DNA of 64,000 bases from Gammaproteobacteria bacterium (GCA_029863005.1 JAOTWF010000001.1:21869-85868), one strand, 5' to 3'; shown: positions 3-38,900, counted from the stretch's first letter. Notes: generated by a model from the sequence alone, not told the origin. Numbers and translations: made by a program.

Positions 3-1199
3 TGCGTGTCCACGCGCGTGGCTTTCAAAGCGGTGGACGCTGCTACCCCGGCCACGCCAGAACACCCGCGCGCCGGTTTCACCGACGCCGAGCAGGCCGA
101 ACGCGTGCGCGGGTTGTTGCGCACCATGGGACTGACATCCCGTTTCGCGCCGCTGGTGGTGCTGCTCGGTCATGGGTCATCGAGCGAGAACAATCCTCAC
201 CTCGCCGCTTACGATTGCGGCGCCTGTTCTGGGCGCCACGGTGGACCGAACGCGCGCGTGTTCGCCGCCATGGCCAACCGCCCGGAAATCCGCGTGCGCC
301 TCGCCGAACAAGGCCTTTCTATTCCGTATGACACTTGGTTCATCGGTGCCGAACACAACACCGGCGATGACAGCATCCTCTGGTATGACGAGGATCTCGT
401 CCCCGAGGAGGCGCGCGCCCGGGCGACCGAACTCAAGATGATTCTCGCGCGTGCCGGCCGCGCCCACGCACAAGAGCGCTGCCGGCGCTTCGCGACGGCG
501 TCACCACGCCTGTCACCCGAGCGGGCTGTTCGCCATGTAGCCGGTCGGGTGCACGATCTGTCGCAGGCGCGACCCGAACTCGGACACGTCACCAACGCCT
601 GCGCCATCATCGGGCGGCGCGATGTAACGCGCGGCGCTTTCTTCGACCGGCGCGCCTTTCTGGTTTCCTACGATCCGATGCAAGACCCGGAAGGCGATAT
701 TCTGGAAAACATCCTGCTCGCGGTGGGTCCAGTCGGGGCCGGCATCAGCCTCGAATATTATTTCTCGACGGTGAACAACGAGCGTCTTGGATGCAGCACC
801 AAGGTCATGCACAACATTACCGGATTCCTGGGAGTGCAGGAAGGCACGAGCTCGGATCTGCGCACCGGTCTGCCGCAGCAGATGATTGAAATCCACGAAG
901 CCATGCGCCTGCTGATCGTGATCGAGGCGGACACCGGTGTCATCAGCCGCCTGATCGAACGACAGCCTTCACTGCGGGAATTGATCGGCAACGGCTGGGT
1001 GCAGGTGGCCGCCAAAGACCCTCGCTCCTCACGGATCGATGTCTTTTCGCCGGAACATGGCTGGCAAAACTGGCAAAAGGAAATCGAGGCGCCGCCCGTA
1101 GTCGCGCGTTCCGCTGACTGGTTCACCCGTCATCGTGAGGCCTTGCCGCCCGCCTTGCTCGAACAGGGGCGCCCCGGGGAGCATGCCAATGTTGACTGA
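3..1199 (+). CDS. dabA: DabA/DUF2309 (UPF0753) cytoplasmic subunit of a DIC-accumulating complex, beta-carbonic-anhydrase-like; 5' end lies outside the window
   Basis: LLGHGSSSENNPHLAAYDCGACSGRHGGPNAR motif typical of DUF2309 (His and Cys zinc ligands); frame open from base 3; stop overlaps the next gene. Confidence 0.9.
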   Translation, partial: CVSTRVAFKAVDAATPATPEHPRAGFTDAEQAERVRGLLRTMGLTSRFAPLVVLLGHGSSSENNPHLAAYDCGACSGRHGGPNARVFAAMANRPEIRVRLAEQGLSIPYDTWFIGAEHNTGDDSILWYDEDLVPEEARARATELKMILARAGRAHAQERCRRFATASPRLSPERAVRHVAGRVHDLSQARPELGHVTNACAIIGRRDVTRGAFFDRRAFLVSYDPMQDPEGDILENILLAVGPVGAGISLEYYFSTVNNERLGCSTKVMHNITGFLGVQEGTSSDLRTGLPQQMIEIHEAMRLLIVIEADTGVISRLIERQPSLRELIGNGWVQVAAKDPRSSRIDVFSPEHGWQNWQKEIEAPPVVARSADWFTRHREALPPALLEQGRPGEHANVD

Positions 1200-2715
1200 T
1201 CTGATCGCATTGGTGCCGCTGTTTCCGTTGCTCGCGGCGCTGCTGATCGCGCTGTACGCGCTGCCCGGCCGGCCGCGTGGTGATGCCGCCGAACGCCTGA
1301 CCGCGCGCGGTGCCCTCTTCGCCGTGACGCTGGCGTTCGCGCTGCTGGCGGCACTGATAGTCAGCGCGCTGATCTTCGGCCCGCTCAAACCCGTCAACTT
1401 TGGCACCTGGTTTGCCGCCGGCGCGATCGAAATCCGTCTGAGTTTCGTACTCGACGGACTGAGCCTCACGGCGGCGCTGGGGGTGGCGGTCATCGGCTGG
1501 CTGACGCTTTTCTTCTCGGCCCAGTATATGCATCGCGAACCAGGCTTCCATCGCTTCTTCGCCGTCTTGTGCCTGTTCCTCGCGGCCATGTTGTTCATCG
1601 TCCTCGCCGGCAATGCCGTGCTCATGTTCATCGGCTGGGAGCTGTCCGGGCTCGCCTCGTTCCTTCTTATCGGCTATGCCCACGAGCGCGCCACCGCCAC
1701 ACGCAACGCCGTGCGCGCCTTCGTGACCAACCGCATCGGCGACGCCGGCTTTCTCCTCGGCCTGGCCATTGCCTATCGGTACCTCGGCAACACTGAATGG
1801 ATCACGATCGCGGCGGGCGCGGGCGCTATCAGCCATCTCGCGGTCGGCGTGGTGGTGTTCGGGTTCGTGGTCGCGGCCATGGCGAAATCCGCGCAACTGC
1901 CGTTCACTCCGTGGATCGCGCGCGCCCTCGAAGGCCCGACGCCCTCAAGCGCGATTTTCTACGGTTCACTGATGATCCACGCCGGCGTCTACCTGTGCTT
2001 GCGTCTTGAACCGCTGCTCGCCCACGCCCCCGTGATCATGGGTCTGCTCGCCGCCATCGGCCTGCTGACCGCGCTGTACGGCTGGTTCGTGGGGCTCACG
2101 CAGAGCGACGTCAAATCGGCACTGATCTTCGGGACGATCACCCAGGTCGGTCTGATGTTCCTGTGGATCGGACTCGGCGCCTTCGATCTCGCCGCCTGGC
2201 ACCTCGGCCTGCACGCCATGTTTCGCGCTTACCAGTTTCTCGCGGCGCCGTCGTACATGCATCACACCGGCACACCCGCACGGCCGGTCCCGCGCTGGCT
2301 CGGGCGTCGCCAAGCGCTTTATACCGCCGCCCTCGAACGGCTGTGGGTCGAGGCCTTTACCGATGCCACGGTCACGCGCCCGGCGCAGGTGCTGGCCGCG
2401 GAAATGCGCAGCTTTGACGACCAGGTGGTGTCGCGGCTCGCGGGGACGCCGGCAGAGCAACATGCGCCGGAAGACGAAGCGGCGAGTAAGGGGGTGCAAG
2501 ATGACGTGCGTGGCCACGGCCTCGCCGGGGCAATACTCGAATGGATCGCACCGCGTCTGCACCGCGTGGAACAGCGGCTGCTGCTCACCGGTGGCGCCGG
2601 CGTGCAGCGGACATTTCGCGCACTTGGCGGCTATCTGGAAGTGGTGGAGCGGCTGCTGGAACGCCCACGCTACCTGATACTTATTATTGTTATCGCGCTG
2701 GCGGCGGCGCTATAG
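1189..2715 (+). CDS. dabB: NuoL/ND5-like proton-translocating membrane subunit (DabB/MpsA-like), 508 aa
   Basis: Multi-TM; GWELSG, NRIGDAGF, AKSAQLPF, EGPTP motifs. ATG 1189 follows GGGGAG and overlaps the dabA stop. Confidence 0.8.
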   Translation: MLTDLIALVPLFPLLAALLIALYALPGRPRGDAAERLTARGALFAVTLAFALLAALIVSALIFGPLKPVNFGTWFAAGAIEIRLSFVLDGLSLTAALGVAVIGWLTLFFSAQYMHREPGFHRFFAVLCLFLAAMLFIVLAGNAVLMFIGWELSGLASFLLIGYAHERATATRNAVRAFVTNRIGDAGFLLGLAIAYRYLGNTEWITIAAGAGAISHLAVGVVVFGFVVAAMAKSAQLPFTPWIARALEGPTPSSAIFYGSLMIHAGVYLCLRLEPLLAHAPVIMGLLAAIGLLTALYGWFVGLTQSDVKSALIFGTITQVGLMFLWIGLGAFDLAAWHLGLHAMFRAYQFLAAPSYMHHTGTPARPVPRWLGRRQALYTAALERLWVEAFTDATVTRPAQVLAAEMRSFDDQVVSRLAGTPAEQHAPEDEAASKGVQDDVRGHGLAGAILEWIAPRLHRVEQRLLLTGGAGVQRTFRALGGYLEVVERLLERPRYLILIIVIALAAAL

Positions 2716-2727
2716 GAATTTTCGGCC

Positions 2728-4233
2728 ATGCAAGAACTCAACTGGTCTCAACACGCCGTCTACCCGATACTGGCCGTGTTGCAACTGCTGCCGCTCCTGG
2801 GGGCGATGATCGTCTATGGCCTGCGTGAACGGACTTTCGCCGCCGCGCTGGGACGTGTATTCGCCGCTGCCGAGCTGTTCATTGCCATTGATCTCTACCG
2901 CCGTTTCGACGCCACGTCGCCGTTGATGCAGTTCGCCGAACGGCTCAATTTTCTGGGCGCGCTCGATTACCACGCCGCCGCCGACGGCATCACGGTCGTG
3001 TTCATTCTGACCACGGCCCTGCTGACGCTGCTGGTGAGCGTCTACAGCCTGGTACGCGGACTCCCCGACCTCGGCCGTCTGCTGGCCGTGGTGCTGGCGA
3101 TCGAGTCGGTCATCATGTCGCTGTTGGCGAACCAGAACCTGCTGTGGTTCGCGCTTGCTTCGACCGCGGAGCTGGGATTGATCGGCTACATGGTGTGGCG
3201 CTGGTCGAACTCGGCCGAGAAGGACCGGGCGCTGCGGCGCTTTTACCAGTTCCACGGCACCGGCGTGCTGTTGCTGCTGATCGGCACGCTCCTGGCCGGC
3301 AATCATTACGCGGATTTCACCGGCGGGCACGTGAGCTACGAGCTCGCCGACCTCATGGTCTCCACCGGAGAATCCGCGCGCGCCGGGGTGATTTTTATTT
3401 TGCTATTCGTCGGTCTCGCGATTCGCGCGCCGCTGTTCCCGTTCCACGGCTGGCTGCCGATGGTGACGCGCCATGGCAACATCGCCATGGCGCCGGCCTT
3501 CCTGCTCGGCATCAAGGTCGGCATTTACGGCATGATCCGCTTCATCTTGCCGATGCTGCCGGGGGTGTCGGCGCAGGCGCGCGGAATTATCCTCGGCGCG
3601 GCACTCGCTGGTATTTTCTACGCCGCCTTGCTCGCGTTCAGGCAGACCAACTTGCGACATCTGCTCGCTTTCGCCGTGATCAGCCACACCAGTTTGCTCG
3701 CGATCGGAATTTTCACACTCGAGCCGGAGGCGCTGGAAGGAACGGTGCTGCTCGCCATCACCTTCGGTCTTGCGGCGACGGCGATGCTGTTCATGGTCGG
3801 CCTCGTGTACCGCCGCATCGGTTCCACCCAGCTTTCGCACCTGGGCGGTCTGTTCGACCGCCTGCCCGCCCTGGCGTTGACGTTTTTCGTTGGCGGTCTC
3901 GCCATCGTGTGCATGCCGGGCACGCCGGGTTTCGACGCGGCGCACCTGGTATTTGAGGGCGCGATTCACCGTTTCGGCGCGCTCGCCACGCTGGCGGCGG
4001 CGCTCGGCAACGTGGTGGCCGCGGGCTTCCTGCTGTGGGCCTTCCAGCGCGCGTTCCTGGCTCCGGCCCCGGCCGGGCGTACCGCCACGGTGGATCGCGC
4101 CAGCCCGTTGGAATTGTTTATCGCGACTGTGGTCGTCGCCGTTTTGCTGTTTGCCGGCTTTTACACCACGCCATGGTTCGATCTGGTCGATGTGCCCATG
4201 CGTGCGCTGGGCCAGCGGCTTGGGACAATCTGA
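2728..4233 (+). CDS. NuoM/MrpD-like antiporter-type membrane subunit 1 (atypical charged residues)
   Basis: 501 aa, hydrophobic; PLFPFHGWLP, GIKVGIYG, MPGTPGF motifs of the proton_antipo_M family. Confidence 0.85.
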   Translation: MQELNWSQHAVYPILAVLQLLPLLGAMIVYGLRERTFAAALGRVFAAAELFIAIDLYRRFDATSPLMQFAERLNFLGALDYHAAADGITVVFILTTALLTLLVSVYSLVRGLPDLGRLLAVVLAIESVIMSLLANQNLLWFALASTAELGLIGYMVWRWSNSAEKDRALRRFYQFHGTGVLLLLIGTLLAGNHYADFTGGHVSYELADLMVSTGESARAGVIFILLFVGLAIRAPLFPFHGWLPMVTRHGNIAMAPAFLLGIKVGIYGMIRFILPMLPGVSAQARGIILGAALAGIFYAALLAFRQTNLRHLLAFAVISHTSLLAIGIFTLEPEALEGTVLLAITFGLAATAMLFMVGLVYRRIGSTQLSHLGGLFDRLPALALTFFVGGLAIVCMPGTPGFDAAHLVFEGAIHRFGALATLAAALGNVVAAGFLLWAFQRAFLAPAPAGRTATVDRASPLELFIATVVVAVLLFAGFYTTPWFDLVDVPMRALGQRLGTI

Positions 4234-4245
4234 GGCCCTGGCGAC

Positions 4246-5724
4246 ATGGATAACATGCCTATAATAAGTCTGCTGCTGCTGACCCTGCCCACCGGCGCGG
4301 CGCTGATCTGGCTGCTGCCGCGTCCTGACCAGGCACGCTACGTTGCTGTCGGCGCGTGCCTCATGGCGTTGGCCCTGGCGCTTGTCGTGGTCTTCCACTT
4401 CGATCCCGCTGATGCGAGATTCCAGCTTATCGAGCAGGCTCTGTGGATACCGAACCTGGGAGTGAATTATCTCGTGGGCGTGGACGGCTTCTCCGTGCTG
4501 TTCCTGCCACTGACGGCGCTGCTGTTCCTGGGCGCGGTGTTGGCCTCGGTCAATCAGGTGCGTATTTCACCCAAGGCCTATTTCACCCTGTTGTTGCTCG
4601 AGGGTGCCGCCACCCTCGGGATTTTCTGCGCGCTCGACACGCTGCTCTTCTTCACGCTCTGGGAATTTTCCATCATTCCCATCTATTTCCTTGTGAGCCT
4701 GTGGGGTGTGGGGCCGAATCGCAAACCGGCGGCAAACAAATACGCCCTGCTCATGCTGGCTGGCGGATTGCCGCTGCTGTTCGCGTTCTTGTTGCTGGCG
4801 CTTCACTCCCTCGACGGGGGTGGCAACGGTTCGCCGTTTGATCTGCGTCTGCTGCTCGACATGCACATTCCCAAGACCTTGCAATTGACCGTGTTCGCGC
4901 TGTTGCTGGTGGGATTCGGCGTGAAGGCGCCGCTGGTACCGCTGCACACCTGGCTGCCGCAATTGGCGAACGAAGGTCCCGTGGCGGTGACCGCGCTGAT
5001 TGCCGGGCTTAAGATCGGCGCCTTCGGCCTGATCCGCTTCGCCTTCCCCCTGGCGCCGGAAGCGGCGCACGCGTTTCAGTGGCTGCTGGTGGGCCTTGGT
5101 TCGGCGGGCATCCTCTACGGCGCGGTGGTGGCGCTGGCGCAGACCAATTTGCGGCCGGCGCTCGCCTATCTCGGCGTCAGCCACGTGGGGCTGGTTATTC
5201 TCGGGCTCGCGACCTTCCGCCAGGAAGGTATTGAGGGCGCCGTGTTCGAGCTGCTAAATTTCACCGTGATCGCCGGCGGCTCGTTCCTGATGCTGGAATT
5301 CCTGCGCCAACGCACCAGCACCACGGATGTCGCCAGCCTCGGCGGGGCCATGAAGCACCTTCCCTGGCTTGGCAGCTTCTTTCTGCTGCTCGGGCTGGCC
5401 TCGCTCGGTCTGCCCGGCACTTCGGGTTTCCCAGCGGAATTTCTGATTATTCTTGCCGCCCTGCAGACGCACACCGGCGCCAGCCTCGCCGCGCTGACGG
5501 CCATGGTGATCGGCTCCGGGTGCTTCATGGTGCTTTATCAGCGCGCCTTCTTCGGCCCGGCAACAAATCCAGTGCTGGTGGAAGCGGAGGATTTAAGGCT
5601 GCGTGAACGCTTGGTCGTGATCGCGTTGGCACTGGTGGTACTGGTCGTCGGCTTCTATCCCGCCATGTACCTCGACATCATCGAATCGGCGGGCAAGGCC
5701 TGGATCGCGCGACTGACACTTTGA
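4246..5724 (+). CDS. NuoM-like antiporter-type membrane subunit 2
   Basis: 492 aa; LWEF, GVKAPLVPLHTWLP, GLKIG, LPGTSGFPAEF canonical NuoM motifs. Confidence 0.88.
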   Translation: MDNMPIISLLLLTLPTGAALIWLLPRPDQARYVAVGACLMALALALVVVFHFDPADARFQLIEQALWIPNLGVNYLVGVDGFSVLFLPLTALLFLGAVLASVNQVRISPKAYFTLLLLEGAATLGIFCALDTLLFFTLWEFSIIPIYFLVSLWGVGPNRKPAANKYALLMLAGGLPLLFAFLLLALHSLDGGGNGSPFDLRLLLDMHIPKTLQLTVFALLLVGFGVKAPLVPLHTWLPQLANEGPVAVTALIAGLKIGAFGLIRFAFPLAPEAAHAFQWLLVGLGSAGILYGAVVALAQTNLRPALAYLGVSHVGLVILGLATFRQEGIEGAVFELLNFTVIAGGSFLMLEFLRQRTSTTDVASLGGAMKHLPWLGSFFLLLGLASLGLPGTSGFPAEFLIILAALQTHTGASLAALTAMVIGSGCFMVLYQRAFFGPATNPVLVEAEDLRLRERLVVIALALVVLVVGFYPAMYLDIIESAGKAWIARLTL

Positions 5725-5810
5725 GCGCTTTGCGCATCCCGAAATAGCAGGTTGCCAGCCCCGACACGGCGCGTTACCGTGGGGTCATCATTCCACTGCA
5801 CGAATAATTC

Positions 5811-7559
5811 ATGTCCACGGACCGTCCCCAACGCAAACTTCACCACGCGCTCGATGCGCTGCGCCTGCGCCTGTCGCGCGCCGAGGCACTGCCGCAGCTG
5901 GCAACCCTCGGCGTGATCTGCGGCCTGCTTACCGGCCTCGTCATCATCGCCTTTCGCCTGCTCATCGAGGTCAGCCAGTCGCTGTTCCTGCCTGGCGCTG
6001 ACCCGGAGAACTACGAAGGCCTCGACATGATGTGGCGTTTCCTTCTGCCGTTCGCGGGCGGGCTGGTGCTCGGGCTCGTGTTCCATTTCCTGCCGAAGGA
6101 GTCGCGCCACGTGGGCGTGGTGCACGTGATGGAACGCCTCTCCTACCACCAGGGCCGATTGCCATTGCGCAACGCGATTGTCCAGTTCCTTGGTGGAGCG
6201 GTGAGCATCATCGCCGGCCACTCTGTCGGCCGCGAGGGTCCGGCTATTCATCTCGGCGCCGCCAGCGGCAGCGTTGCCGGGCGTTACATGGGCCTGCCGA
6301 ACAACAGCCTGCGCGTGCTCGCGGGTTGTGGTGTGGCGGCCGCCATCGCCGCCGCGTTCAACACGCCGCTCGCCGGCGTGGTGTTCGCCATGGAGGTCGT
6401 GATCATGGAATACACCGTGGCCGGGTTCGCCCCGGTGATTCTGGCGGCGGTGAGCGCGACCGCGCTGTCGCAATTCGTGTACGGCTCGGCGCCGGCGTTC
6501 AGCGTGCCGCAGCTGGCACTCGGCTCCCTGTTCGAGCTCCCTTTCATCCTCGCGCTTGGCATGATCATCGGTGCGCTTGCCGCCGCTTTCATCGTGATTA
6601 CGGGCTTCTTCGCCGCGCGCTTCAAGGCCGTTCCAATCTGGGCGCGACTGACCGTGGCCGGCACGATCACCGGCCTGCTGGCGCTTCAGGTGCCGGAAAT
6701 CATGAGCATCGGTTATGACACAGTGAATGCGGCATTGCTCGGACAACTCACCCTCGTCGCGTTGGGCGGCATCGTCATCTTCAAGCTGTTGGCCACCGCC
6801 GCCGGCGTTGGCCTTGGCCTGCCGGGTGGGATGATCGGCCCGGTGCTGGTGCTGGGTGCAGCCGCGGGCGGCCTCCTCGGCATTCTCGGGCAAACACTCG
6901 CGCCGGGCGAGGCCTCCACGCCCGGCCTGTACGCCCTGCTCGGCATGGGCGCGATGATGGCCGGCGCCTTGCAGGCGCCGCTCGCGGCGTTGACCGCGGT
7001 GCTCGAACTGACCGGCAATCCGCACATCATCATGCCCGGCATGCTCGCGGTGATCGCGGCATCGCTCACGGCGCGCGTGGTGTTTCATCAGCCGTCGGTT
7101 TATGTGGTGTTGCTCCGCGGGCGCGGGCTCGATTACCGCAATGATCCCGTGACGCAGTCGCTGCGCCGACTTGGCGTCGGCGGCAGCATGGACGGTAACA
7201 TCACGGTGCTGCCGCGCACGATCGCGCCCGATCGCGCGCAGGCCGAACTGGCGCTCAACCCTGACTGGATCCTGGTGCGCGACGGCGAAAAACTGGTAGC
7301 ACTGCAACCGGCCATGGACCTCGCGCGCGCGCTCAAGGAACAGCCGGAGGCGACGGAACTCGACCTGCTCGCCATCCCGGCGCAACGCAGCCAAGTTGCC
7401 GGCGTGTTGTTGCAGGCGACCCTGCAAGAGGCGCTGGATATACTCAACGCCACTGGCGCCGAAGCGGTTTATGTAAGCGACGACGCCGCCCCGGGCTCGG
7501 AACATGTATACGGAGTTTTGACACGCGAGCGCATCGAGCGCAGTTACCGCTACAGTTAG
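5811..7559 (+). CDS. ClC-family chloride channel/antiporter with C-terminal CBS-like region
   Basis: SVGREGP motif, AAAFNTPLAG, GGMIGP, QAPLAA; about 582 aa with soluble C-terminal tail. Confidence 0.88.
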   Translation: MSTDRPQRKLHHALDALRLRLSRAEALPQLATLGVICGLLTGLVIIAFRLLIEVSQSLFLPGADPENYEGLDMMWRFLLPFAGGLVLGLVFHFLPKESRHVGVVHVMERLSYHQGRLPLRNAIVQFLGGAVSIIAGHSVGREGPAIHLGAASGSVAGRYMGLPNNSLRVLAGCGVAAAIAAAFNTPLAGVVFAMEVVIMEYTVAGFAPVILAAVSATALSQFVYGSAPAFSVPQLALGSLFELPFILALGMIIGALAAAFIVITGFFAARFKAVPIWARLTVAGTITGLLALQVPEIMSIGYDTVNAALLGQLTLVALGGIVIFKLLATAAGVGLGLPGGMIGPVLVLGAAAGGLLGILGQTLAPGEASTPGLYALLGMGAMMAGALQAPLAALTAVLELTGNPHIIMPGMLAVIAASLTARVVFHQPSVYVVLLRGRGLDYRNDPVTQSLRRLGVGGSMDGNITVLPRTIAPDRAQAELALNPDWILVRDGEKLVALQPAMDLARALKEQPEATELDLLAIPAQRSQVAGVLLQATLQEALDILNATGAEAVYVSDDAAPGSEHVYGVLTRERIERSYRYS

Positions 7560-7569
7560 CGGCAGTGGT

Positions 7570-8058
7570 TCAGCATTCCAGCTTTAATCGCTGGTGCCAC
7601 TCGGCGATGGACTCTTCGGGGTATTCGTCAAACTTCTTGTCGCGCGGGCCAGCGAGGACCGGCACCCAGTTCGCCTTCGACCCCAGCATCAGGTGCGTGC
7701 GCTCGGGCGCAGTCGGGAGCTCGGTGTCGATCGCCGAGGCGAACGGATGCACGAGATGCGGCCACGTCGGGTCCCAGAGCCAGAGCGCACTGCCGCACTT
7801 CTTGCAGAAATTCCGCCGTGCCGTGCTCCGTGTGATTTTCCCGGTCGTCTCGTCTTTCAGTCGCGCGCGGTAAACGGAAATGTTTGCCTTGCCGGTAATC
7901 TTCATCGTCTTGTAATCACCGCTAAGATTGATCGCATAACCCCCACCTCCCGCGGTCTTGCGGCAGATCGAGCAGTAACAAAGATTGAATGGATACGGGT
8001 GCGGCGACTGGACAGTGAATTTCACGCTTGTGCAATGACACGATCCCTTGAGTTCCAT
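7570..8058 (-). CDS. GFA/CENP-V family Zn-binding protein, 162 aa
   Basis: GSCHC, CYCSICRK, RNFCKKCGS cysteine pattern; GGGAGA RBS before ATG 8058. Confidence 0.88.
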   Translation of the reverse strand: MELKGSCHCTSVKFTVQSPHPYPFNLCYCSICRKTAGGGGYAINLSGDYKTMKITGKANISVYRARLKDETTGKITRSTARRNFCKKCGSALWLWDPTWPHLVHPFASAIDTELPTAPERTHLMLGSKANWVPVLAGPRDKKFDEYPEESIAEWHQRLKLEC

Positions 8059-15898: not shown

Positions 15899-18232
15899 CT
15901 AGCGGGTCAGCCCGGCGTACAACATCGGCAACCGCTCCGGCAGGCGGCTGACGTGATCCACCACCATGTAGCCCTTGGGCCCGAAGATGCGCGAGACGTA
16001 ATCGTCGGCGTTGGGATCGAGGGTGAGACAAAAGGTGCGCACCCCGTGCGTTGCCAGCTCCTCGACGGCCTTTTTCGTATCGTGGCGCAGGTATTGCGGG
16101 TCGCGCACGTCTATGTCGGCCGGCTCGCCGTCGGTCACCAGCAGGATGAGTTTTTTCTGTTCCGGTTGCCGGCGTAGGAACGAGGCCGCGTGCCGCAACG
16201 CTCCACCCATGCGCGTGGACAGGCTGCCCTGCATGCCCGCGATCTTGGCCTTGGCCTCGTCACCGTAGTGATCCTCGAAATCCTTGAAGCGGTAGTACTC
16301 CACGTCGTGGCGGCCGTCCGAGGCGAATCCATGGATGGCGAACGGGTCGCCAACGCGATCGATGGCCCAGGACAGCAAGGACGTCGCTTCGCGCGCCAGC
16401 TGCAACACCGGCTTCTCGGAGTCGCCAAGTTTCTCGTTGGTGGATTCGGAAAGATCGAGCAGCACCAGCACCGCCAGATCGCGCACCTTGCGCTCGATGC
16501 GGATGTTAATGCGCGGGTCCGGCGTCTGGCCCAGGCGGATGTCAATCATGGCGCGGATCGCGGCGTTGAGGTCGATCTCCTCGCCGTCTTCCTGGCGCCG
16601 GAAGCGCTGCACGCCCTCGGGCTGCATGGCATCGATGATGTGGCGCAGACGCGAGGCCACCGGCTTGTGCTCGGTAAGAATGCGGTCGATGTCCTCCGGG
16701 TCGCCCTTCTTCGGGCGCTTTTCCAGAACCGTCACCCAGTTGGGACGGTGCAGCTGTACGCCGTAATCCCATTCCTGGTAGTGATACGGCTCGCTGACCG
16801 GTTCCTTGCCTTCCAGCTCGTTGATGGTGCAGCCTTCCTGGTCAAGATAGAACGGCGTGTTGAGCACCCAGATTTCCTGCGCGTCGTCACCGGCCAACTC
16901 GCAGTCGATCTCGTTGGCCATCTCGGTGACCGACACGTATTTGCGCACCTGCTTCGACGCCGGGACATACTCGGCCGCGTGCCAGGCGATCTCGTCCGAA
17001 GCCCAGAGATAGCGGTTGTCGTCGCGATAGGGAATCGCCATGGATTCGAGCACGCGCAGCGACGGGATGGCGCCGCGCTTGCCGAGCTTGTTGTACAGCG
17101 TGACGCCCAGATCCCACGATAGCCGATTGTCCTGTGGACGCTCGGCGAATTCCTCATGAAACTGCGTCACCATTTCCCGGATCAGGCTGTCGTCATCCTG
17201 ATAACTTTCGTCCAGCAACGCGTAGGCCAAACGCTCGAGCAACCCGACCATCGGATCGGTGGAACAACTGACCTCACGCACCTTGTCATGAAACTGGGAC
17301 CACATCTGCTTCATGCCCGGAAATTCCTTGACGGCCAGCGCCTCGACACGCGCGTCCTCGAACAGGCCGATGAGGAACATCTGAGCCGGATTGAGCGCTT
17401 CCATCGACAGCGGCTCGCGCGTATAGACCAGGTGCGCGGCGGCGTGCGCGGCGGTGGCGCGAAACAATTCTTTCCCCGGCAGTCCGGCGAAATCGTCGTA
17501 GGCGTCCGGCAGATGGATGACACGCGCTTCGATGAACGGCTTGTAACCCTCGCGGGTTTCATAATCGCCCGAGGTCGGGCGCATGAAGAAATCCCTTCCC
17601 CAGAAGGCGCGCAGATAAAAATTGAGCTTGCGCTGGTTGTCGATCAGCAGTGTGCCGCGCCGTTCCTTCTGGAGCATGGCCTGGCTGTCGGCGCTCTTGA
17701 GATCGAAATAGGACGTCTGCGCCTGGAAATCTCTCTGGTGTGCCTGCGCACCCCACAGCGCCCAGCGCCGCAGGCCGCCGAGTGTGAGCTTGCCAAACAA
17801 CTCGTCCAGGTGCGACAGCATCGGGCGCAGCCCGCGCGGCGCCTTGGCCGACAACTGGCGGATCAGGCCGAGATAACCGCGCAGCAACTCGGCATCACCC
17901 AATCGTTGCGCCGCGGTTGGAAGAGTATCGAACAACAGCTGGATCACCTCGCCGCTCACCATCGAGGCCAGCTTCATGGACTCGGTGACGCAATCCTTGA
18001 TCACGTCCTCGCCGACCTCTTTCACCACCGCCGGCATTTCCTGGACGTAAGTCGTGACGAGCTCGTTGCCTCGTCCGAGCTGCGACAGCCCTCGCGCGCC
18101 TTCCAGCCAGTTGTGCAGGCCCTGGGGCGACATCACGCGCGCCGCCTCGGTGAAGCTCGCCTCCAGCGTGGCACGGATGTGCGGATCGATCTCCTCGAGG
18201 GTTTCCTTGTAGTCTTTGAGGCTGACGCTCAT
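15899..18232 (-). CDS. cbbO: CbbO, vWA-domain Rubisco activase adaptor
   Basis: 777 aa; MIDAS LDLSES and VTDGEP near the C terminus; downstream of cbbQ. Confidence 0.93.
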   Translation of the reverse strand: MSVSLKDYKETLEEIDPHIRATLEASFTEAARVMSPQGLHNWLEGARGLSQLGRGNELVTTYVQEMPAVVKEVGEDVIKDCVTESMKLASMVSGEVIQLLFDTLPTAAQRLGDAELLRGYLGLIRQLSAKAPRGLRPMLSHLDELFGKLTLGGLRRWALWGAQAHQRDFQAQTSYFDLKSADSQAMLQKERRGTLLIDNQRKLNFYLRAFWGRDFFMRPTSGDYETREGYKPFIEARVIHLPDAYDDFAGLPGKELFRATAAHAAAHLVYTREPLSMEALNPAQMFLIGLFEDARVEALAVKEFPGMKQMWSQFHDKVREVSCSTDPMVGLLERLAYALLDESYQDDDSLIREMVTQFHEEFAERPQDNRLSWDLGVTLYNKLGKRGAIPSLRVLESMAIPYRDDNRYLWASDEIAWHAAEYVPASKQVRKYVSVTEMANEIDCELAGDDAQEIWVLNTPFYLDQEGCTINELEGKEPVSEPYHYQEWDYGVQLHRPNWVTVLEKRPKKGDPEDIDRILTEHKPVASRLRHIIDAMQPEGVQRFRRQEDGEEIDLNAAIRAMIDIRLGQTPDPRINIRIERKVRDLAVLVLLDLSESTNEKLGDSEKPVLQLAREATSLLSWAIDRVGDPFAIHGFASDGRHDVEYYRFKDFEDHYGDEAKAKIAGMQGSLSTRMGGALRHAASFLRRQPEQKKLILLVTDGEPADIDVRDPQYLRHDTKKAVEELATHGVRTFCLTLDPNADDYVSRIFGPKGYMVVDHVSRLPERLPMLYAGLTR

Positions 18233-18234
18233 GG

Positions 18235-18543
18235 TTAGCCTTCTTCCACGTCCATGTCCGGTGACCAGCCCTGCGCGCGCGCGCGTTGTACCGCTTCATT
18301 GTAGATGCGCTCATGGCGCGTCCTCAGCTCGGGCGGCAACTGGCTGGCCAGATGACCATACGGCTCCCAAGCGGCGTGGACCTTTTCGTACAGCTTGTCG
18401 AACTGGGGTGCGCTCCAGCCGGCGCAGGTCTCGGTCTCCGGTAGCAGCCCGAACACCCAGGCGTCACGGATGATGTGCCCGAGATCGGTCATGCCGCCAA
18501 AGAGGTCAGCGTGAATGCCGGGATAGCCAGCACCGCGGTTCAT
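18235..18543 (-). CDS. Small hypothetical protein between cbbQ and cbbO
   Basis: 102 aa; GGGAG RBS; 19 bp after the cbbQ stop and its stop is 2 bp before the cbbO ATG; acidic C terminus DMDVEEG. Confidence 0.75.
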   Translation of the reverse strand: MNRGAGYPGIHADLFGGMTDLGHIIRDAWVFGLLPETETCAGWSAPQFDKLYEKVHAAWEPYGHLASQLPPELRTRHERIYNEAVQRARAQGWSPDMDVEEG

Positions 18544-18562
18544 GGCGATATCCGCTCCCGAC

Positions 18563-19399
18563 TCAAAAGTAGGTGTTGATGGCGGCGTCGAGCGTGTCGC
18601 GCATGTCCGGATCGTCGGTGATCGGTCGCACCAGCGTCATCTGGCAGGCGGCCTTGGCGTCGATACCGCGCGCGATCAGCTGGCCAGCATAGGCCAGCAA
18701 GCGCGTGGAGATGCCTTCGTCCAGGCCGTGGCCCTTCAAGTTGCGCGCGCGGTGCGCGATCTGCACCAGCTTTTCGGCAACGCTCTTCTCCACCTTGGTT
18801 TCGTGCATGACGATCTCGGCCTCGACTTCGGCCTCGGGGTAATTGAAGTCGATGGCGCCGAAGCGCTGCTTGGTGGACTGTTTCAGGTCCTTCATCAGGC
18901 TCTGGTAACCCGGGTTGTAGGAAATCACCAGCTGGAAATCCTCATGGCAATTCACCGTCTCGCCCTTCTTCTCCAGCGGTAGCTGGCGGCGGTGATCGGT
19001 GAGCGGGTGGATCACCACGGTCGTGTCCTGGCGCGCCTCGACGACCTCGTCGAGATAGCAGATCGCGCCGATGCGCGCGGCCACGGTCAGCGGGCCGTCG
19101 TGCCATTTTGTGCCGCTGGCGTCGAGCAGGTAGCGCCCGACCAGGTCGGAGGCCGTCATGTCTTCGTTGCAGGCCACCGTGATCAGCGGCTTTTTGAGTT
19201 TCCAGGCAATGTATTCGACAAAGCGGCTCTTGCCGCAACCGGTCGGGCCCTTGAGCATCACCGGCATGCGCGCGCTGTAGGCGGCTTCGTACAATTCGAC
19301 TTCATTGGCGACTGGGCGGTAATACGGCTCGCGGGCCACCATGTACTGGGACATATCCAGGGTGTCGTTATGCTTCGCAGCTACGCTTGCTTTGGTCAT
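18563..19399 (-). CDS. cbbQ: CbbQ, MoxR-type AAA+ Rubisco activase, 278 aa
   Basis: Walker A GPTGCGKS, Walker B CYLDE, ISYNPGYQ, DEGISTRLL; GAGGTG RBS before ATG 19399. Confidence 0.95.
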   Translation of the reverse strand: MTKASVAAKHNDTLDMSQYMVAREPYYRPVANEVELYEAAYSARMPVMLKGPTGCGKSRFVEYIAWKLKKPLITVACNEDMTASDLVGRYLLDASGTKWHDGPLTVAARIGAICYLDEVVEARQDTTVVIHPLTDHRRQLPLEKKGETVNCHEDFQLVISYNPGYQSLMKDLKQSTKQRFGAIDFNYPEAEVEAEIVMHETKVEKSVAEKLVQIAHRARNLKGHGLDEGISTRLLAYAGQLIARGIDAKAACQMTLVRPITDDPDMRDTLDAAINTYF

Positions 19400-19426
19400 T
19401 GGTTCATCACCTCGTTCGATGCCTTC

Positions 19427-19464
19427 AACAAAAAACCCCTGCCCGGTTACCCGAGCAGGGGTTT
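19427..19464 (-). terminator. Intrinsic terminator/attenuator between cbbS and cbbQ
   Basis: Minus-strand RNA AAACCCCUGCUCGG-GUAA-CCGGGCAGGGGUUU: 14-bp stem with one G-U, GNRA loop, then a U6 run. Confidence 0.8.
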
Positions 19465-19486
19465 GGTCACCCTTGCCGGGCAAGAA

Positions 19487-19843
19487 TTACTTCATTTTGC
19501 CGCGGTAGATCACCATCGCGGTGCCTTGCGACTGTTTGAAGTTGTCATAGCCGATCAGGCGCACATGGTTGTCCGGGTTGGCTTTGTGGCAGGCCTCGGC
19601 TTCGGCCAGGATCCGATCGACGTTGGTCTCGCCGAACATCGGCAACTTCCACATGTACCAGTAATGGTCGAAGGCGTTCTCCGGCTCAGTATGCTCGATG
19701 GCCGGGTTCCAGCCCTTGCTTACCAGGTACGCCACCTGCTTCTTGATCTCGTCCTGCTTCATCGCCGGCAGGTAGGAGAAGGTTTCGAACTTGCGGCTGG
19801 CGCTGTCCGAGAGACGCGAATTGTAATCTTGCATTTCACTCAT
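19487..19843 (-). CDS. cbbS: Rubisco form I small subunit
   Basis: [27 protein letters not shown] motifs. Confidence 0.97.
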
Positions 19844-19905
19844 TGCGGTTTCCTCATGTCAGTCTGGGAAGCGGCCGGGCGATGGCGCCCGCCCGGATTC
19901 CGGAT

Positions 19906-21336
19906 TTACTTGTGCGCGACGTCGAGCTTGTCGACGGTGTCGAACTCGAACTTGATTTCCTTCCAGGTTTCCATGGCGGCCTTCAGTTCCGGCGAGCTCT
20001 TGGCGGCGTTGGTCAGGATGTCCTTGCCTTCCTTCTCGAGCTGACGGCCCTGGTTGCGCGCCTCGGTACAGGCCTCAAGCGCCACACGGTTGGCGGCCGC
20101 ACCGGCGGCGTTGCCCCACGGATGGCCCAGCGTGCCGCCACCGAACTGCAGGCAGGCGTCGTCGCCGAAGATCGAGACCAGCGCCGGCATGTGCCACACA
20201 TGGATGCCGCCGGAGGCAACCGGGATCACGCCCGGCATGGAGCCCCAGTCCTGATCGAAGAACAGGCCGCGTGAACGATCTTCCTTGATGAAGCTGTCAC
20301 GCATGGTGTCGATCCAGCCCAGCGTCGCCTCGCGATCGCCTTCGAGCTTGCCGACCACGGTACCGGAATGCAGATGGTCGCCGCCCGACAGGCGCAGCGC
20401 CTTGGCCAGCACACGGAAGTGAATGCCGTGATGTGGGTTGCGATCTAGCACGGCGTGCATGGCGCGATGGATGTGCAACAGCATGCCGTTGTCACGGCAC
20501 CAATTGGCCAGGCCCGTATTGGCGGTGAAACCGCCGGTCAGGAAGTCGTGCATGATAATGGGCGCACCCAGGCTCTTGGCGAACTCGGCACGCTTGTACA
20601 TCTCTTCCGGGGTCGGCGCGGTCACGTTCAGGTAATGACCCTTGCGCTCGCCAGTTTCCTTCTCCGCCTTGTGGATCGCTTCCATCACGAACTCGAAGCG
20701 ATGATTCCAGCGCATGAACGGCTGCGAGTTAATGTTCTCGTCGTCCTTGGTGAAGTCGAGACCGCCGCGCAGACACTCATACACGGCGCGACCATAGTTC
20801 TTGGCTGACAGACCGAGCTTCGGCTTGATGGTGCAGCCGAGCAGCGCGCGGCCGTACTTGTTCAGACGGTCACGCTCGACCTGGATGCCGTTCGGCGGAC
20901 CGCCGCAGGTCTTGACGTAGGCGATGGGGAATCGCACGTCCTCGAGGCGCAGCGCGCGCAGGGCCTTGAAGCCGAACACGTTGCCGACCAGCGAGGTAAA
21001 CACGTTGACCACCGAACCCTCTTCGAACAGGTCGATCGGGTAGGCCACGAAGGCATAGAAGCAGGTGTCGTCGCCCGGCACGTCTTCGATGCGGTAGGCG
21101 CGGCCCTTGTAGTGATACAGGTCGGTCAGCAGGTCGGTCCACACCGTGGTCCAGGTGCCGGTGGACGACTCGGCGGCGACGGCGGCGGCCGCTTCTTCAC
21201 GCGGCACGCCGGCCTGCGGGGTGATCTTGAAACAGGCCAGAATGTCGGTATCCAGAACCTTGTAATCGGGTTCCCAATAGGTTTCGCGGTACTCTTTGAC
21301 GCCCGCTTTGTACGTCTTCACGTTGGCTTTGCTCAT
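19906..21336 (-). CDS. cbbL: Rubisco form IA large subunit, 476 aa
   Basis: [11 protein letters not shown] active-site motif, [22 protein letters not shown]; GAGGAG RBS before ATG 21336. Confidence 0.98.
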
Positions 21337-21430
21337 ATGCACTCCTCGTAGGAAATCGTGTGAATTCGGCTATTTCGCCTGTTATTACCCAAGCGTTATG
21401 ACATCTTGGGTATAACCCTACTATCCCCAC

Positions 21431-21481
21431 ATCATAAATAACACTCACAATTTATGATTATTATGATAAGTTATAGCTTAT
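21431..21481. promoter_or_regulatory. Putative CbbR (LysR) operator in the divergent cbbL-cbbR spacer
   Basis: AT-rich; TTA-N7-TTA (21461-21473), TAA-N8-TTA (21467-21480) and inverted repeat ATCATAAAT-N10-ATTTATGAT (21431-21458). The first two match the TNA-N7/8-TNA CbbR pattern. Confidence 0.6.
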
Positions 21482-21502
21482 AGTCATATCGGGGCCAATA
21501 CT

Positions 21503-22423
21503 TTGCACCTCACGCTGCGACAACTCAAGGTTTTTGAATCGACGGCGCGCCACCTGAACTACACCCGCGCGGCGGAGGAGCTTTTCCTAACCCAGCCGGC
21601 CGTGTCCATGCAGGTGAAGCAACTGGAGGAGAGTCTCGGGGTCGCACTGTTCGAGCAACTGGGCAAACGCGTCCATCTGACGGAAGCCGGCCAGGAAGTG
21701 CTCACCTACGCGCGTACCGTGACCCAGCAACTGGACGAACTCGAATCGGTCCTGAACAGCCTCAAGGGACTTTCCGGCGGAAAGCTGCGCATCTCGGTCG
21801 CCACCACCGCCAACTACTTCATCCCCATCCTGCTCGGCACCTTCTCGCGCCGTTATCCGGAGGTGACGGTCAGTCTCGATGTCACCAACCGGGAAATACT
21901 GCTCCAGCAGCTTACCGAGAATACCGTCGATCTCGTCATCATGGGCCAGCCCCCGGCCGAGGCCGACGTCGAGGCTGAGGCCTTCATGGAAAACCCACTG
22001 GTCATCGTGGCGCCGCCTGATCACGCGCTGGCGAAGCAGAAAAAAATCCCGCTGAAGCGTCTACAGGATGAGGTCTTCCTGGTTCGCGAACCGGGCTCGG
22101 GCACGCGCAGTGCCATGGAGCGCTTCTTCGCCGAGCGCGAAATTCACCTGAAAACCGGCATGGAAGTCGGCAGCAACGAGGCCATCAAACAAAGCGTGCA
22201 GGCAGGCCTGGGGCTGGGGCTGCTGTCACGCGCCACGATCGGGCAGGAGCTGGAGCTGAAACGGTTGGTGGAACTGGACGTTGCCGAGTTTCCCATCATG
22301 CGTCACTGGTACGTGGTACATCGGAAAGGTAAGCGCCTGTCGGCCGCGGCCGAAAAATACAAGGATTTCATGCTGAAGGAGGCCCGGACCCTGATGGGCA
22401 AAAAAGCCGGGGAAAGTCGGTAA
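21503..22423 (+). CDS. cbbR: LysR-type regulator CbbR
   Basis: LTLRQLKVF...LNYTRAAEELFLTQPAVSMQVKQLE HTH; REPGSGTR; divergent from cbbL; TTG start. Confidence 0.93.
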   Translation: MHLTLRQLKVFESTARHLNYTRAAEELFLTQPAVSMQVKQLEESLGVALFEQLGKRVHLTEAGQEVLTYARTVTQQLDELESVLNSLKGLSGGKLRISVATTANYFIPILLGTFSRRYPEVTVSLDVTNREILLQQLTENTVDLVIMGQPPAEADVEAEAFMENPLVIVAPPDHALAKQKKIPLKRLQDEVFLVREPGSGTRSAMERFFAEREIHLKTGMEVGSNEAIKQSVQAGLGLGLLSRATIGQELELKRLVELDVAEFPIMRHWYVVHRKGKRLSAAAEKYKDFMLKEARTLMGKKAGESR

Positions 22424-35901: not shown

Positions 35902-38900
35902 TCACTTCGTCCTGCCCTGTGCGATCAGCGTGTCAATATTCTTGAACAGATCCTCTTCCTGATAGGGCTTACTCATGTAAATGTCCACACCGAGTTCGAA
36001 GGCCTTCTGACGATGCTTGGCACCGGCGCGTGATGTAATGATGATGATGGGAATGTGCTTGAGGTTTTCGTCGGATCGCACGCGGGTGGTGAGTTCATAC
36101 CCGTCCATGCGCGGCATTTCAATGTCGACCAACATCACGTCGGGCAGGTGATCGCGCAACTGTTCGACGGCATCAAGCCCGTCCTTGGCGACCAGCACGT
36201 CCATGCCACGTTTCTGCAGGTGCTTGCTCGTGACTTTGCGCACCGTGAGCGAGTCGTCCACCACCATGACGACCGGCCGCGCGCGCACTTCTTGCGCTAT
36301 TTTTCCTTCGGGGCGATGCTCGAAATGCATGACATCTTCGCGGAACCACAAACCCGGGATGTCGAGAATTAGTATTACGCGCCCGTCGCCGAGGATGGTG
36401 GCGCCGGCGAGCCCCTTGAGCTCGGAAAGCTGGGGACCGAGCGATTTGATCACGACTTCGCGCGTGCCGCCCAGTCCATCGACCTGGATCGCGACCTCGC
36501 GTGTTCCGGTGCGTGCCAACAGCACCGGTACTTTCTTGCCATTGCGTGGCTGCGAAGTAATTCCCAGTCGCTGTCCCAGATGCATGTATGGATACACCGT
36601 CTCGTCGTGGGTCAGCAGCGGATTCTTGCCCATTGAAATGGACGCGATCTTTTCGATCGGGAACTCGATAATGTTCACTACCGAACCCAGCGGCAAGGCG
36701 AAGAGCTGGTCACCGACGTACACCATCAGTGACTGGGCGATGGACAACGTCAGTGGCAAGCGGATGATGAAGGTCGTGCCCACGCCCGGCTCGGTGTCCA
36801 CCGACATGCTGCCGCCCAATTGCTTCACCTCGCTGTGCACCACGTCCATGCCCACGCCACGGCCGGACAGGTGTGTAATCTTGTCGGATGTGGAGAAACC
36901 GGACATCAGAATGAATTGGATCAGCTCCTCCTCCGTCAGAACGGCATCCGGGGACATCAGTCCGCGCTCAATCGCCTTTTCGCGGATTCCCGCGATGTTG
37001 AGACCGGCGCCATCGTCGGAGAAACGAATGATGACTTCCGCGCCCTCCTGCGAGGACACGATGTTGATGCGTCCGACCGCCGGCTTTCCTTTTCGGTGAC
37101 GCTCGGATTCGGATTCGATTCCGTGGTCGATGCTGTTTCGAATCATGTGCTCGAACGGCCCGATCATGCGCTCCAGCACGTTGCGGTCGAGTTCTACCTC
37201 GGCATTCTCCAGGTGGAGTTCCACACGCTTGCCCAGCTCGCGCGAGGTCTGTCGAATGATATGACGCAGTCGCGCGGCCTGCGTCGAAAAGCTCACCATG
37301 CGCGTACGCATGAGTCCTTCCTGCAGCTCGGTATTGATGCGCGCCTGCTGTTGCAGCACGGTCTCTGCCTCGCCGACAAAATTACCGAGGTTGTTCTGGA
37401 TGGTGCCGAGGTCGTGCAGGCTTTCCGCCAGAGAACGTGACAATTGCTGCAGCCGACTGAAGCGGTCAAACTCCAGCGGATCGAAATCGCCCGTGCGCCC
37501 TTCGATGCCCGCCTCCTGCTCCAAACGGTAAAGAATCTGCGACTCGGACTGTATCTCCAGTTCGCGGATTTGCTCCCGGAAACGCACGATGTTGCGTGAT
37601 AGTTCACCCATGTTGTCGCGGAAGCTGAATATCTGCTGTTCCATGCGTGAGCGTGAGATGCTCACCTCGCCCGCGTAGTTGACAAGATCGTTCAACAGGC
37701 TAGTGTTGACACGCACTTGGCCGCGCCGCTCCATCTTATCCGGCCAGGTCTTCTCTACGATTTCGGGCAGATCGCGCCGTTCTTCGATAATCTCCTTGGC
37801 GGCCCGTGGTGCAGCGGGCGACGCGGTCTCGGCTTCATGCGTGACGGCTTCGGGTTCCAGCTCCGGTTCTGCGATAAATTGTTCGGCGGGTTCGCTTGTC
37901 GGCACTTCCGGGGCGTTCTTGGCTATGGATTTATCATCCGGCAGATCCTCACTGACAGACAATGCCAACAGGTTGGCATTCAACTCGCTGGTATCGGGGA
38001 TGGGCCGGCTTTCGCGCGCGCTCTCCAGCATCACCACCAGCATGTCTTGGGCCTCGTGCAGGAGATCGAACACATGGTTGTCCACCTGCACTTTATTGTC
38101 TTCAATGTTCTTCAGTAGCGTTTCGGTGTTGTGACTGAGGTTGCCCATGGCCATGGCGCCAGCCATGCGTGCCCCGCCCTTGAGCGTATGCAGCGAGCGC
38201 TTGAGTTCGGCCACATGTCCCCGGTGATCTTCTGGGCGATTACGCCAGCGAGTCAGGGTCTCTTCGAGCGATGTCAGGATATCGCTGGCCTCTTCCTGGA
38301 AGATTTCCAAAAGCTCCGGATCGAGCTGTTCGGGCTCAGGCGGTTCCGCGGCTATGGGTGGCGGGGCCTGCGTTGCCGTGGGACGAGAAAGTTTCGTTGG
38401 CGGCGGCGCGGAGAGCGTCTCATCAATTTCCGGCTCTGGTGCGACGTCTTCCTCGATTTCCATTGCAGGCGCTGCCAGCGTTTCCGGAGCGACATGATGT
38501 TCATGTTCCGTCTTGGCGATGTGCTGTGTTTCCGTGTGCAGGTCACGCGCGAGATCGGCGAACTCCTGCCGCAAAGAACCGGAAGAAGTGGCACTGCTGT
38601 TCATCAGTTCCACTAGCCGGGTGACGGCGGACTCGAACCGGCTTGCCAACCTCAAATAAGTTTCATTCAGGGGCAGATTCGCGCTTTTGAGCGCATGCAA
38701 CAGTTTTTCGATTTCCGCACAAGCCTGCGACATGACCTGTAAACCCAGCGAGCGGGCATTGCCCTGAAGGGTGTGCACGGAACGGAAAAACGGTTCGGAG
38801 ACAAAACACGCGCTACCGGACTCACGACAGTTCTGGATTTGCCGGCGTATATTCTCGAGATTGTCGAGAGCTTCCGTGGTAAAAATCTCCAACAACGCGC

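Follow-up and report, generated by a model that had tools for sequence, protein, structure and literature searches.

The window analysed here is a stretch of 64,000 nucleotides (contig C127:21869-85868) from the draft genome of a gammaproteobacterium (GCA_029863005.1, JAOTWF010000001.1; 2.45 Mb, 95% complete), on a contig of 101 kb. It opens inside a five-gene operon, M0-dabA-L-M1-M2, most of which lies in the window and whose start lies upstream (Table 1). The operon joins the dabA gene of a DAB-type inorganic-carbon pump to one NuoL-like gene (L) and three NuoM-type genes (M0, M1 and M2). A sequence-only reading of the window had described dabA followed by three tightly spaced antiporter-like genes and had suspected more subunits upstream. 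Its open reading frames (ORFs) and their spacing were confirmed in coordinates and junctions, and the upstream sequence does contain a further subunit, M0, which overlaps the start of dabA and brings the antiporter-like genes to four.

The genes of the operon are tightly packed. The TGA stop of M0 and the GTG start of dabA share a 4-bp overlap (GTGA), dabA and L overlap by 11 bp, with the ATG of L at position 1189 lying 7 nt 3′ of a GGGGAG ribosome-binding site, and 12 bp separate both L from M1 and M1 from M2. Since the gaps are 12 bp or less there is no room for small Mrp-type genes, and within the operon we found no NuoN-type, NuoH/A/J/K or MrpB/C/E/F/G gene, no redox module and no gene of DabC size. 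The part of dabA inside the window matches PF10070 at 2.4e-138 and the full gene at 9.4e-241 (Pfam/NCBIfam). Both M1 and M2 exceed the cut-off of TIGR01972 (NDH_I_M, NCBIfam), and MrpD models score far below this NuoM model for the M genes. The genome has one copy of dabA. The sequence-only reading had noted no other nuo, mrp or hydrogenase gene in the window; on the entire contig the operon contributes the only PF00361 genes, and the canonical nuoL, nuoM and nuoN of the cell are on a separate contig (C52). Retrieval of the upstream sequence, which had been proposed as the way to exclude a hydrogenase or Mrp module there, has ruled one out, M0 being preceded by purE and purK. Decay into pseudogenes is ruled out by open, conserved reading frames throughout. 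Promoter and terminator scans of the GC-rich DNA of the locus gave nothing informative.

Table 1. Features of the operon and its surroundings. Positions are those of the window unless the contig (C127) or locus (L001) is named.
Feature	Position	Strand	Description	Model match
M0	C127:18341-19792 (= L001:8341-9792)		483-aa NuoM-type antiporter-like gene, outside the window	PF00361, 1.1e-71
dabA start (GTG)	C127:19789 (= L001:9789)		2080 bases upstream of window base 1	
dabA, 3′ part	3-1199	+	3′-terminal 398 codons of a long-type DabA (1092 aa)	PF10070
L	1189-2715	+	508-aa DabB-type NuoL-like subunit	Proton_antipo_N + Proton_antipo_M
M1	2728-4233	+	501-aa NuoM paralogue, apparently remodelled; hallmark of the operon type	TIGR01972, 270 bits
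M2	4246-5724	+	492-aa NuoM-type subunit, canonical proton-path residues	TIGR01972, 419 bits
ClC-type channel gene	5811-7559		86 bp after M2; no obvious terminator between	
Rubisco operon	15899-22423 (~15.9-22.4 kb)		cbbR divergent from cbbL	
cbbO	15899-18232		small ORF between cbbQ and cbbO	
cbbQ	18563-19483			
cbbS	19487-19843			
cbbL	19906-21342			
CheA-like hybrid kinase gene	35902-41586	-	1894 aa	
PilJ-type chemoreceptor gene	41678-43816			

Recurrence of the five-gene order

The L-M-M layout for which a survey of DUF2309 neighbourhoods had been suggested turned out to be part of a larger recurrent block. Among more than 593 DabA loci, taken from one genome per species, ORFs were typed for the 80 best and for three reference loci, and 52 of these 83 loci, from different species, have the order M0-dabA-L-M1-M2. 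Nearly all of the others are cut by a contig edge within the block, and five are real exceptions. Because the same five genes stand in the same order in 52 loci, and the rest are almost all truncated by contig ends, the layout is far beyond chance. According to database gene calls, Sulfuritortus calidifontis and Thiohalomonas denitrificans have the same five genes with overlaps of 1-4 bp or gaps of at most 10 nt, and the genes flanking the cassette are unrelated in these two species.

Long-type DabA proteins (~1070-1120 aa) are numerous: of the candidates scored, at least 1431 match at E ≤ 1e-10. Carriers of the cassette include Sulfuricellaceae, Thiobacillus, Nitrosomonas, Nitrosovibrio tenuis, Nitrotoga, Accumulibacter and Azonexus, and also Methylobacter, Methylomicrobium, Methylococcus, Thiothrix, Thiodiazotropha, a Solemya symbiont and Magnetococcales. 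The five-gene form is common in sulfur oxidizers, nitrifiers and methane oxidizers; it is the form of ammonia oxidizers, Nitrotoga, type I methanotrophs, Accumulibacter, Competibacteraceae, sulfur-oxidizing symbionts and Magnetococcales. Across 401 genomes that sample the phylum evenly, each at least 90% complete, DabA is present in 63. An M1-type gene (threshold E ≤ 1e-65) occurs in 29 of these 63 and in no genome among the 338 without DabA (Fisher p = 6e-27, a value that ignores relatedness). Leaving the source genome aside, 28 genomes carry it, and in 27 of them it is found on the DabA contig, 1.7-2 kb past DabA. In this sample the five-gene form thus makes up about half of the DabA-positive genomes and, counted by genus, is found in 12 of the 43 genera with DabA.

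Some individual arrangements were observed besides. A Thiothrix metagenome-assembled genome (MAG) has a duplicated catalytic pair, M0-DabA-L-DabA-L-M1-M2 (L031:8442-23123). In two Methylomicrobium loci (L066 and L078, ~3250-7820, minus strand) a short-type DabA-DabB pair stands in divergent orientation beside the five-gene cassette, both DAB forms coexisting. In locus L091 (G172:C139:1567-7530) the order is M0-M2-L-M1 with a DEAD-box helicase gene after it; the only dabA of that genome lies on another contig.

Characteristics of the subunits

The zinc-site motifs of DabA, FCMDDRE and GHGSSSENNPHLAAYDCGAC, align to the CxDxR and GHGS...DCGAC motifs of DabA2 (9rd0_A; 247 bits), and the zinc ligands C560, D562, H751 and C766 do not vary among 36 homologues. 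Identity to a DabA1, with which the protein has the insertion at 388-520 in common, is 31%, and identity to a DabA2 is 28%. Its AlphaFold2 (AF2) model contains a helical hairpin (625-650/653-676) with one hydrophobic arm. Residues 653-671 are the sole segment of the protein with transmembrane (TM) strength, and the position of this segment is conserved in 79 homologues. Judged from the model, the hairpin 625-676 can be read as the elbow or finger motif described for DAB1 and DAB2. A Foldseek comparison of the model with a PDB fold library (releases to April 2026), from which 9rd0 is presumed to be absent, gave no match at E < 0.1.

L aligns to NuoL/NdhF over residues 1-360 only, that is to the end of TM11. 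TM1-11 are followed by a non-membrane arm of ~130 aa and a single C-terminal TM anchor helix, with TM12-15 missing. The same architecture is seen in the orthologues: 137-183 residues without a segment of TM strength follow TM11 in 60/60, and 59/60 end in one hydrophobic helix preceded by two amphipathic ones. DabB1, DabB2 and NuoL have hydrophobic TM12-15 segments in the region where L has none. Since TM12-15 are missing in all 60, L looks incomplete on its own. If the topology of NuoL applies, a 12-helix L should have the tail that follows TM11 in the cytoplasm and its C-terminus in the periplasm. The core (TM1-11) is modelled by AF2 with a predicted local distance difference test score (pLDDT) above 90 and superposes on NuoL/ND5 with a root-mean-square deviation of ~2 Å over ~360 columns. 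Residues E144, D178, K229, K305 and H338 (E. coli numbering) are conserved in 62-63 of 63 sequences, with H254Y and K342R as fixed substitutions. The best sequence match of L among solved structures is NdhF (6hum_F); NuoL/NdhF chains score 183-195 bits versus 121 bits for DabB2. In a maximum likelihood tree L is sister to a short-type DabB of Methylomicrobium, and the NuoL of E. coli and that of the genome itself fall outside (100/99), a placement to be taken with caution in view of the long branches.

The three M subunits lie within the NuoM clade of the tree, apart from NuoN. Each of M0, M1, M2 and L forms a monophyletic group (100% support), and M1, on a long stem, is the sister of M2 (99/97). 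The four subtrees branch similarly, for example in grouping Nitrosomonadaceae with Methylococcaceae, and since they share such groupings the cassette appears to move as a unit between distant lineages. Against NuoM chains M0 scores 302 bits and M2 239 bits. In E. coli NuoM numbering, residues E144, K234, K265, H322, H348 and E407 are invariant in 73/73 orthologues of M0; in M2 the residues E144, K234, K265, H322 and E407 are invariant in 50/50, and H348F is fixed. In M1 the TM7 lysine is an arginine in 57/57, the column of the TM12 glutamate is occupied by Ala or Val and flanked by conserved D403, H406 and E410, and the TM5 acid is represented only by E/Q two residues off register; K265 is kept in 56/57 and H322 in most. 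On these column counts we read M1 as remodelled yet under constraint, and dropped the idea of M1 as a dead scaffold in view of the semi-conserved TM5 E/Q and the conserved D403, H406 and E410. The sequence-only reading is supported in so far as this is a DAB-type locus whose extra full-size subunits are conserved, co-inherited and tightly coupled; with M1 remodelled and L without TM12-15, the channels of the larger complex that it envisaged do not all look equivalent.

A connection between two of the membrane subunits comes from natural gene fusions. At L035:11566-14565, L and M1 form a single reading frame, and a database search with this protein gave 45 full-length clusters of L-M1 fusions (1020-1048 aa, 65-95% identity), mostly from MAGs of Competibacteraceae and other Gammaproteobacteria. 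In 45/45 the L part is kept right to its end and M1 sequence begins at residue 7-12 (one BLAST match starts from 40); the junction leads from the L anchor helix over ~10-15 residues into the first helix (TM1) of M1. The fused M part bears the M1 signature, the TM7 Arg and GFEAAH. Because the in-frame fusion has been retained across a divergence of 65-95% identity, it argues for a contact between L and M1, which would be neighbours in one complex; such a contact fits the DAB1 structure with DabC at the NuoM position beside DabB. The context of the fusion loci is DabA-(L-M1)-M2, with M0 in one locus and missing from others. This suggests a core of DabA, L and M1, to which M2 and especially M0 would be add-on modules.

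The fusion loci of Competibacteraceae and related MAGs (L035, L094, L095 and L096) show some further features. M0 is often absent from them, a conventional β-carbonic anhydrase gene comes after M2, and mobile genes have entered between dabA and the fusion: toxin-antitoxin pairs, a transposase and a 7-kb block with an AAA ATPase paralogue on either side. Just upstream of DabA/L-M1/M2, at L096:1251-4777, lie genes of a biotin-dependent acyl-CoA carboxylase (carboxyltransferase and biotin carboxylase), which uses bicarbonate.

Relation to known systems and a model for the complex

Among non-cyanobacterial autotrophs, the main CO2-uptake systems known are DAB pumps; they are also candidates for use in crops and industrial strains that are to be engineered for carbon concentration. 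Mechanistic work on them, including two cryo-electron microscopy studies of 2026, has all been on two- and three-subunit forms. According to the DAB1 structures from Halothiobacillus neapolitanus and Thermocrinis albus (10.64898/2026.05.01.722082 / PMC13684180), DAB1 is a DabA-DabB-DabC heterotrimer in which DabC, a half-size NuoM-like subunit, sits beside DabB at the NuoM position and is needed for function. The earlier premise of one membrane subunit per characterized DabA system is therefore outdated. The operon described here resembles DAB1 in its long-type DabA with the presumed elbow hairpin, in a NuoL-like partner with the TM5-TM11 proton-path residues and in an additional membrane subunit, M1, which would take the NuoM position beside the DabB-type subunit. 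Unlike DabC, M1 is full size (501 aa) with conserved, altered charged residues, and M0 and M2 are two further canonical NuoM-type subunits found only here; L lacks the TM12-15 that DabB1 retains, and the order M0-A-L-M1-M2 contrasts with B-C-A in a DAB1-like locus. A profile of DabC (DAB1-like locus L089) matches M2 (E 6e-4, probability 29%) and M1 (E 0.04), too weakly to claim a descent of DabC from either.

With DAB2 (DabA2-DabB2; PDB 9rd0) and MpsAB of Staphylococcus aureus the operon has in common the PF10070 + PF00361 pair, the aligned zinc ligands and the proposed, proton motive force-coupled vectorial hydration of CO2. It differs from DAB2 in having five subunits instead of two and in its DabA, the 28% identical DabA2 being ~270 aa shorter. 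Thus neither DAB2 with two subunits nor DAB1 with three and a small DabC matches a set of five genes with three full-size NuoM-type subunits. The cyanobacterial NDH-1MS and NDH-1MS′ complexes (NdhF3/NdhD3/CupA/CupS and NdhF4/NdhD4/CupB) likewise place a cytoplasmic CO2-hydrating protein on an L-type and M-type pair; unlike them, the operon has no redox core and has three M-type subunits, and the catalytic protein is unrelated, DabA being β-carbonic anhydrase (β-CA)-like and the Cup proteins not. The row of PF00361 subunits, with the NuoM residue set in M0 and M2, is reminiscent of the membrane arm of complex I (NuoL-NuoM-NuoN) and of Mrp, and the amphipathic arm and terminal anchor helix of L recall helix HL and TM16 of NuoL. 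In contrast to both, the operon is without NuoN-type, NuoH/A/J/K and MrpB/C/E/F/G genes and without a redox module, and L is without TM12-15.

The gene neighbourhood as such has been noticed before. The COGNAT paper of 2017 (Biol Direct, PMC5700660) describes a ‘clade C’ with ybcC upstream of a nuoL homologue and NuoM (COG1008) genes, often with SulP, and relates how many membrane genes there are to how many ions are translocated. This is the same kind of neighbourhood, with several membrane subunits standing for several ions; it is a gene-map note that predates the function of DabA and in its accessible text contains no gene order, residues, fusions, prevalence or experiment. The five-gene form is not mentioned in the accessible text of the DAB discovery preprint, a 2024 toolkit review or the two structure papers of 2026. 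The literature on DAB3, on DAB in nitrifiers and methanotrophs and on UPF0753/YbcC gave no description beyond COGNAT, and we found no experimental study of this form in the searchable literature. The operon is a real, conserved and uncharacterized five-gene DAB variant that is not new as a gene-map observation.

We consider it probable (roughly 65%) that the five genes encode one DAB-family membrane complex, an enlarged, multi-channel vectorial carbonic anhydrase driven by an ion gradient. The sequences themselves show the gene content, order and coupling, the conservation, the residue patterns, the co-occurrence and the L-M1 fusions; the joint assembly of the five proteins, the order of the subunits, the ion, the stoichiometry and the direction are what we infer, in a mechanism built on the published DAB1 and DAB2 models. 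DabA would be the cytoplasmic, zinc-dependent, β-CA-like catalytic subunit, seated on L, and its hydrophobic helical hairpin would insert where L has lost TM12-15. M1 would occupy the NuoM position beside L, the slot held by the half-size DabC in DAB1, and M2 and M0 would extend the row into a complex-I-like or Mrp-like membrane arm without redox module. The amphipathic arm of L and its anchor helix would probably clamp this row, as do HL and TM16 of NuoL in complex I. Protons (or Na+) would enter downhill via L and the canonical channels M0 and M2, charge movements would travel along the row through M1, and conformational changes might gate the entry of CO2 and the release of HCO3− at the buried zinc site of DabA. 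With CO2 hydrated in one direction only, bicarbonate would accumulate in the cytoplasm. Since the 95%-complete genome contains no bacterial microcompartment (carboxysome) shell genes and no α- or β-CA gene, the complex would supply bicarbonate and dissolved inorganic carbon (DIC) to the single form I Rubisco and to carboxylases.

Several points weigh against this proposal. M0 is missing in the fusion loci L094, L096 and L035, and M2 in L094, so that the five-subunit form is not obligatory. In the genome G172 the four membrane genes are apart from dabA and in a different order. A conventional β-CA gene directly follows M2 in some related loci, which is hard to square with a pump because bicarbonate must be held out of equilibrium. 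The C-terminal arm of L is modelled at a pLDDT of 40-68, so that a clamp like HL is not proven thereby. By estimate, one proton per CO2 is thermodynamically enough for the accumulation ratios reported for CO2-concentrating mechanisms, and as one already suffices, the reason for the extra channels is unclear. Several channels could possibly serve operation at a low gradient, a faster turnover or the removal of the catalytic proton, and the coupling of H+ per DIC may differ, as the sequence-only reading supposed.

The loci that lack M0, or M0 and M2, would also suit a smaller carbon pump made of DabA, L and M1 only, a full-size equivalent of DabA-DabB-DabC, in which case M0 and M2 would be a separate co-expressed antiporter-like unit that handles, for example, the proton load or cytoplasmic pH resulting from CO2 hydration. 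DAB1 does function with three subunits, and in one genome the membrane genes are apart from dabA. We nevertheless regard this as unlikely: the 4-bp overlap of M0 with the start of dabA recurs in other genomes, and in the loci examined the M0 and M2 clades occur only in this operon context, with a branching like that of L and M1. Moreover, no antiporter-like subunit is known to function as an isolated monomer. A different partition of labour within a single redox-free relative of the membrane arm would have M0 and M2 admit H+ (or Na+), and L and M1, under DabA, export the hydration proton. Although we hold this to be rather doubtful, it would have consequences: with the proton taken out of the cell or off the active site, hydration would become irreversible, which would account for the proton removal that the DAB1 structure left unexplained. 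As M0 is optional in some lineages, the count of driving channels would then be an evolvable gear ratio for carbon uptake.

Improbable, in our judgement, is a docking of DabA by the L and M subunits onto the core of respiratory complex I, where they would replace NuoL and NuoM and make CO2 hydration redox-driven. A canonical nuo operon is present on another contig, the subunits are NuoL-/NuoM-type rather than MrpA/D-type, and NDH-1MS, with NdhF3/NdhD3/CupA on the cyanobacterial NDH-1M, sets a precedent; yet L and three M-type subunits outnumber the two slots to be vacated, and the operon has no NuoN-type or small NuoA/J/K-like gene. Furthermore, L lacks TM12-15 and clusters with DabB, whose complexes function in E. 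coli unattached to complex I (Desmarais preprint). The passage of the cassette between distant lineages as a unit also suits a self-contained machine. That the complex has a main task other than DIC import, with CO2/bicarbonate chemistry put to use for, say, the membrane potential (as in the original Mps idea), the homeostasis of pH or the extrusion of Na+, seems to us similarly improbable. Many hosts (methanotrophs, Accumulibacter, Competibacteraceae) are indeed not carboxysome-bearing autotrophs, a β-CA gene is also present in some loci, and COGNAT proposes an exergonic reaction driving ion export (PMC5700660). However, every DabA system tested accumulates DIC or rescues carbonic anhydrase-free cells in a protonophore-sensitive manner, the catalytic residues of DabA are conserved, and CO2 hydration near equilibrium should yield little free energy for ion pumping. 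If the five proteins do assemble as proposed into one multi-channel carbonic anhydrase, nature would offer in it a minimal model of an antiporter-like arm with several channels, which is powered from the ion side and has a chemical output that is easy to measure; lateral coupling between complex-I-type subunits could be probed in such a model.

Genomic surroundings of the operon

The only Rubisco of the genome, of form I, is encoded inside the window, 14 kb downstream of the operon. Among 18 other species of the genus DabA is present in 0/18 and β-CA in 12/18. The ClC-type channel gene that follows M2 is outside the conserved block of other genomes, and only 1 of 20 congeners has it (G016; 97% identity, at a contig start). 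With ClC so rare among congeners, the DAB-ClC stretch looks like an accessory region, and as the congeners are also without DabA, the cassette itself looks like an acquired accessory trait. The S. aureus genome likewise has a DabA system and no conventional α-/β-CA, and MpsAB is reported to substitute there for carbonic anhydrase; by analogy, the DAB cassette may stand in for carbonic anhydrase in the present organism.

Upstream of M0, 1.26 kb without a recognizable gene separate the operon from purE and purK on the opposite strand. The purE-M0 interval (L001:7077-8340, outside the window) contains long ORFs on both strands, none with a Pfam match, and an Rfam scan upstream of M0 returned no family. 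A 28-codon ORF (MIQLLLTTILRIAVTDSEGVVIAAAGRP) occupies the last 87 bases of this interval (L001:8254-8340), also outside the window, with its TGA abutting the ATG of M0. PurK, encoded beside purE, is a user of bicarbonate. Farther downstream, the window contains a gene for a CheA-like hybrid kinase with three matched Hpt stretches, HATPase, CheW and a receiver, which adjoins the gene of the PilJ-type chemoreceptor.

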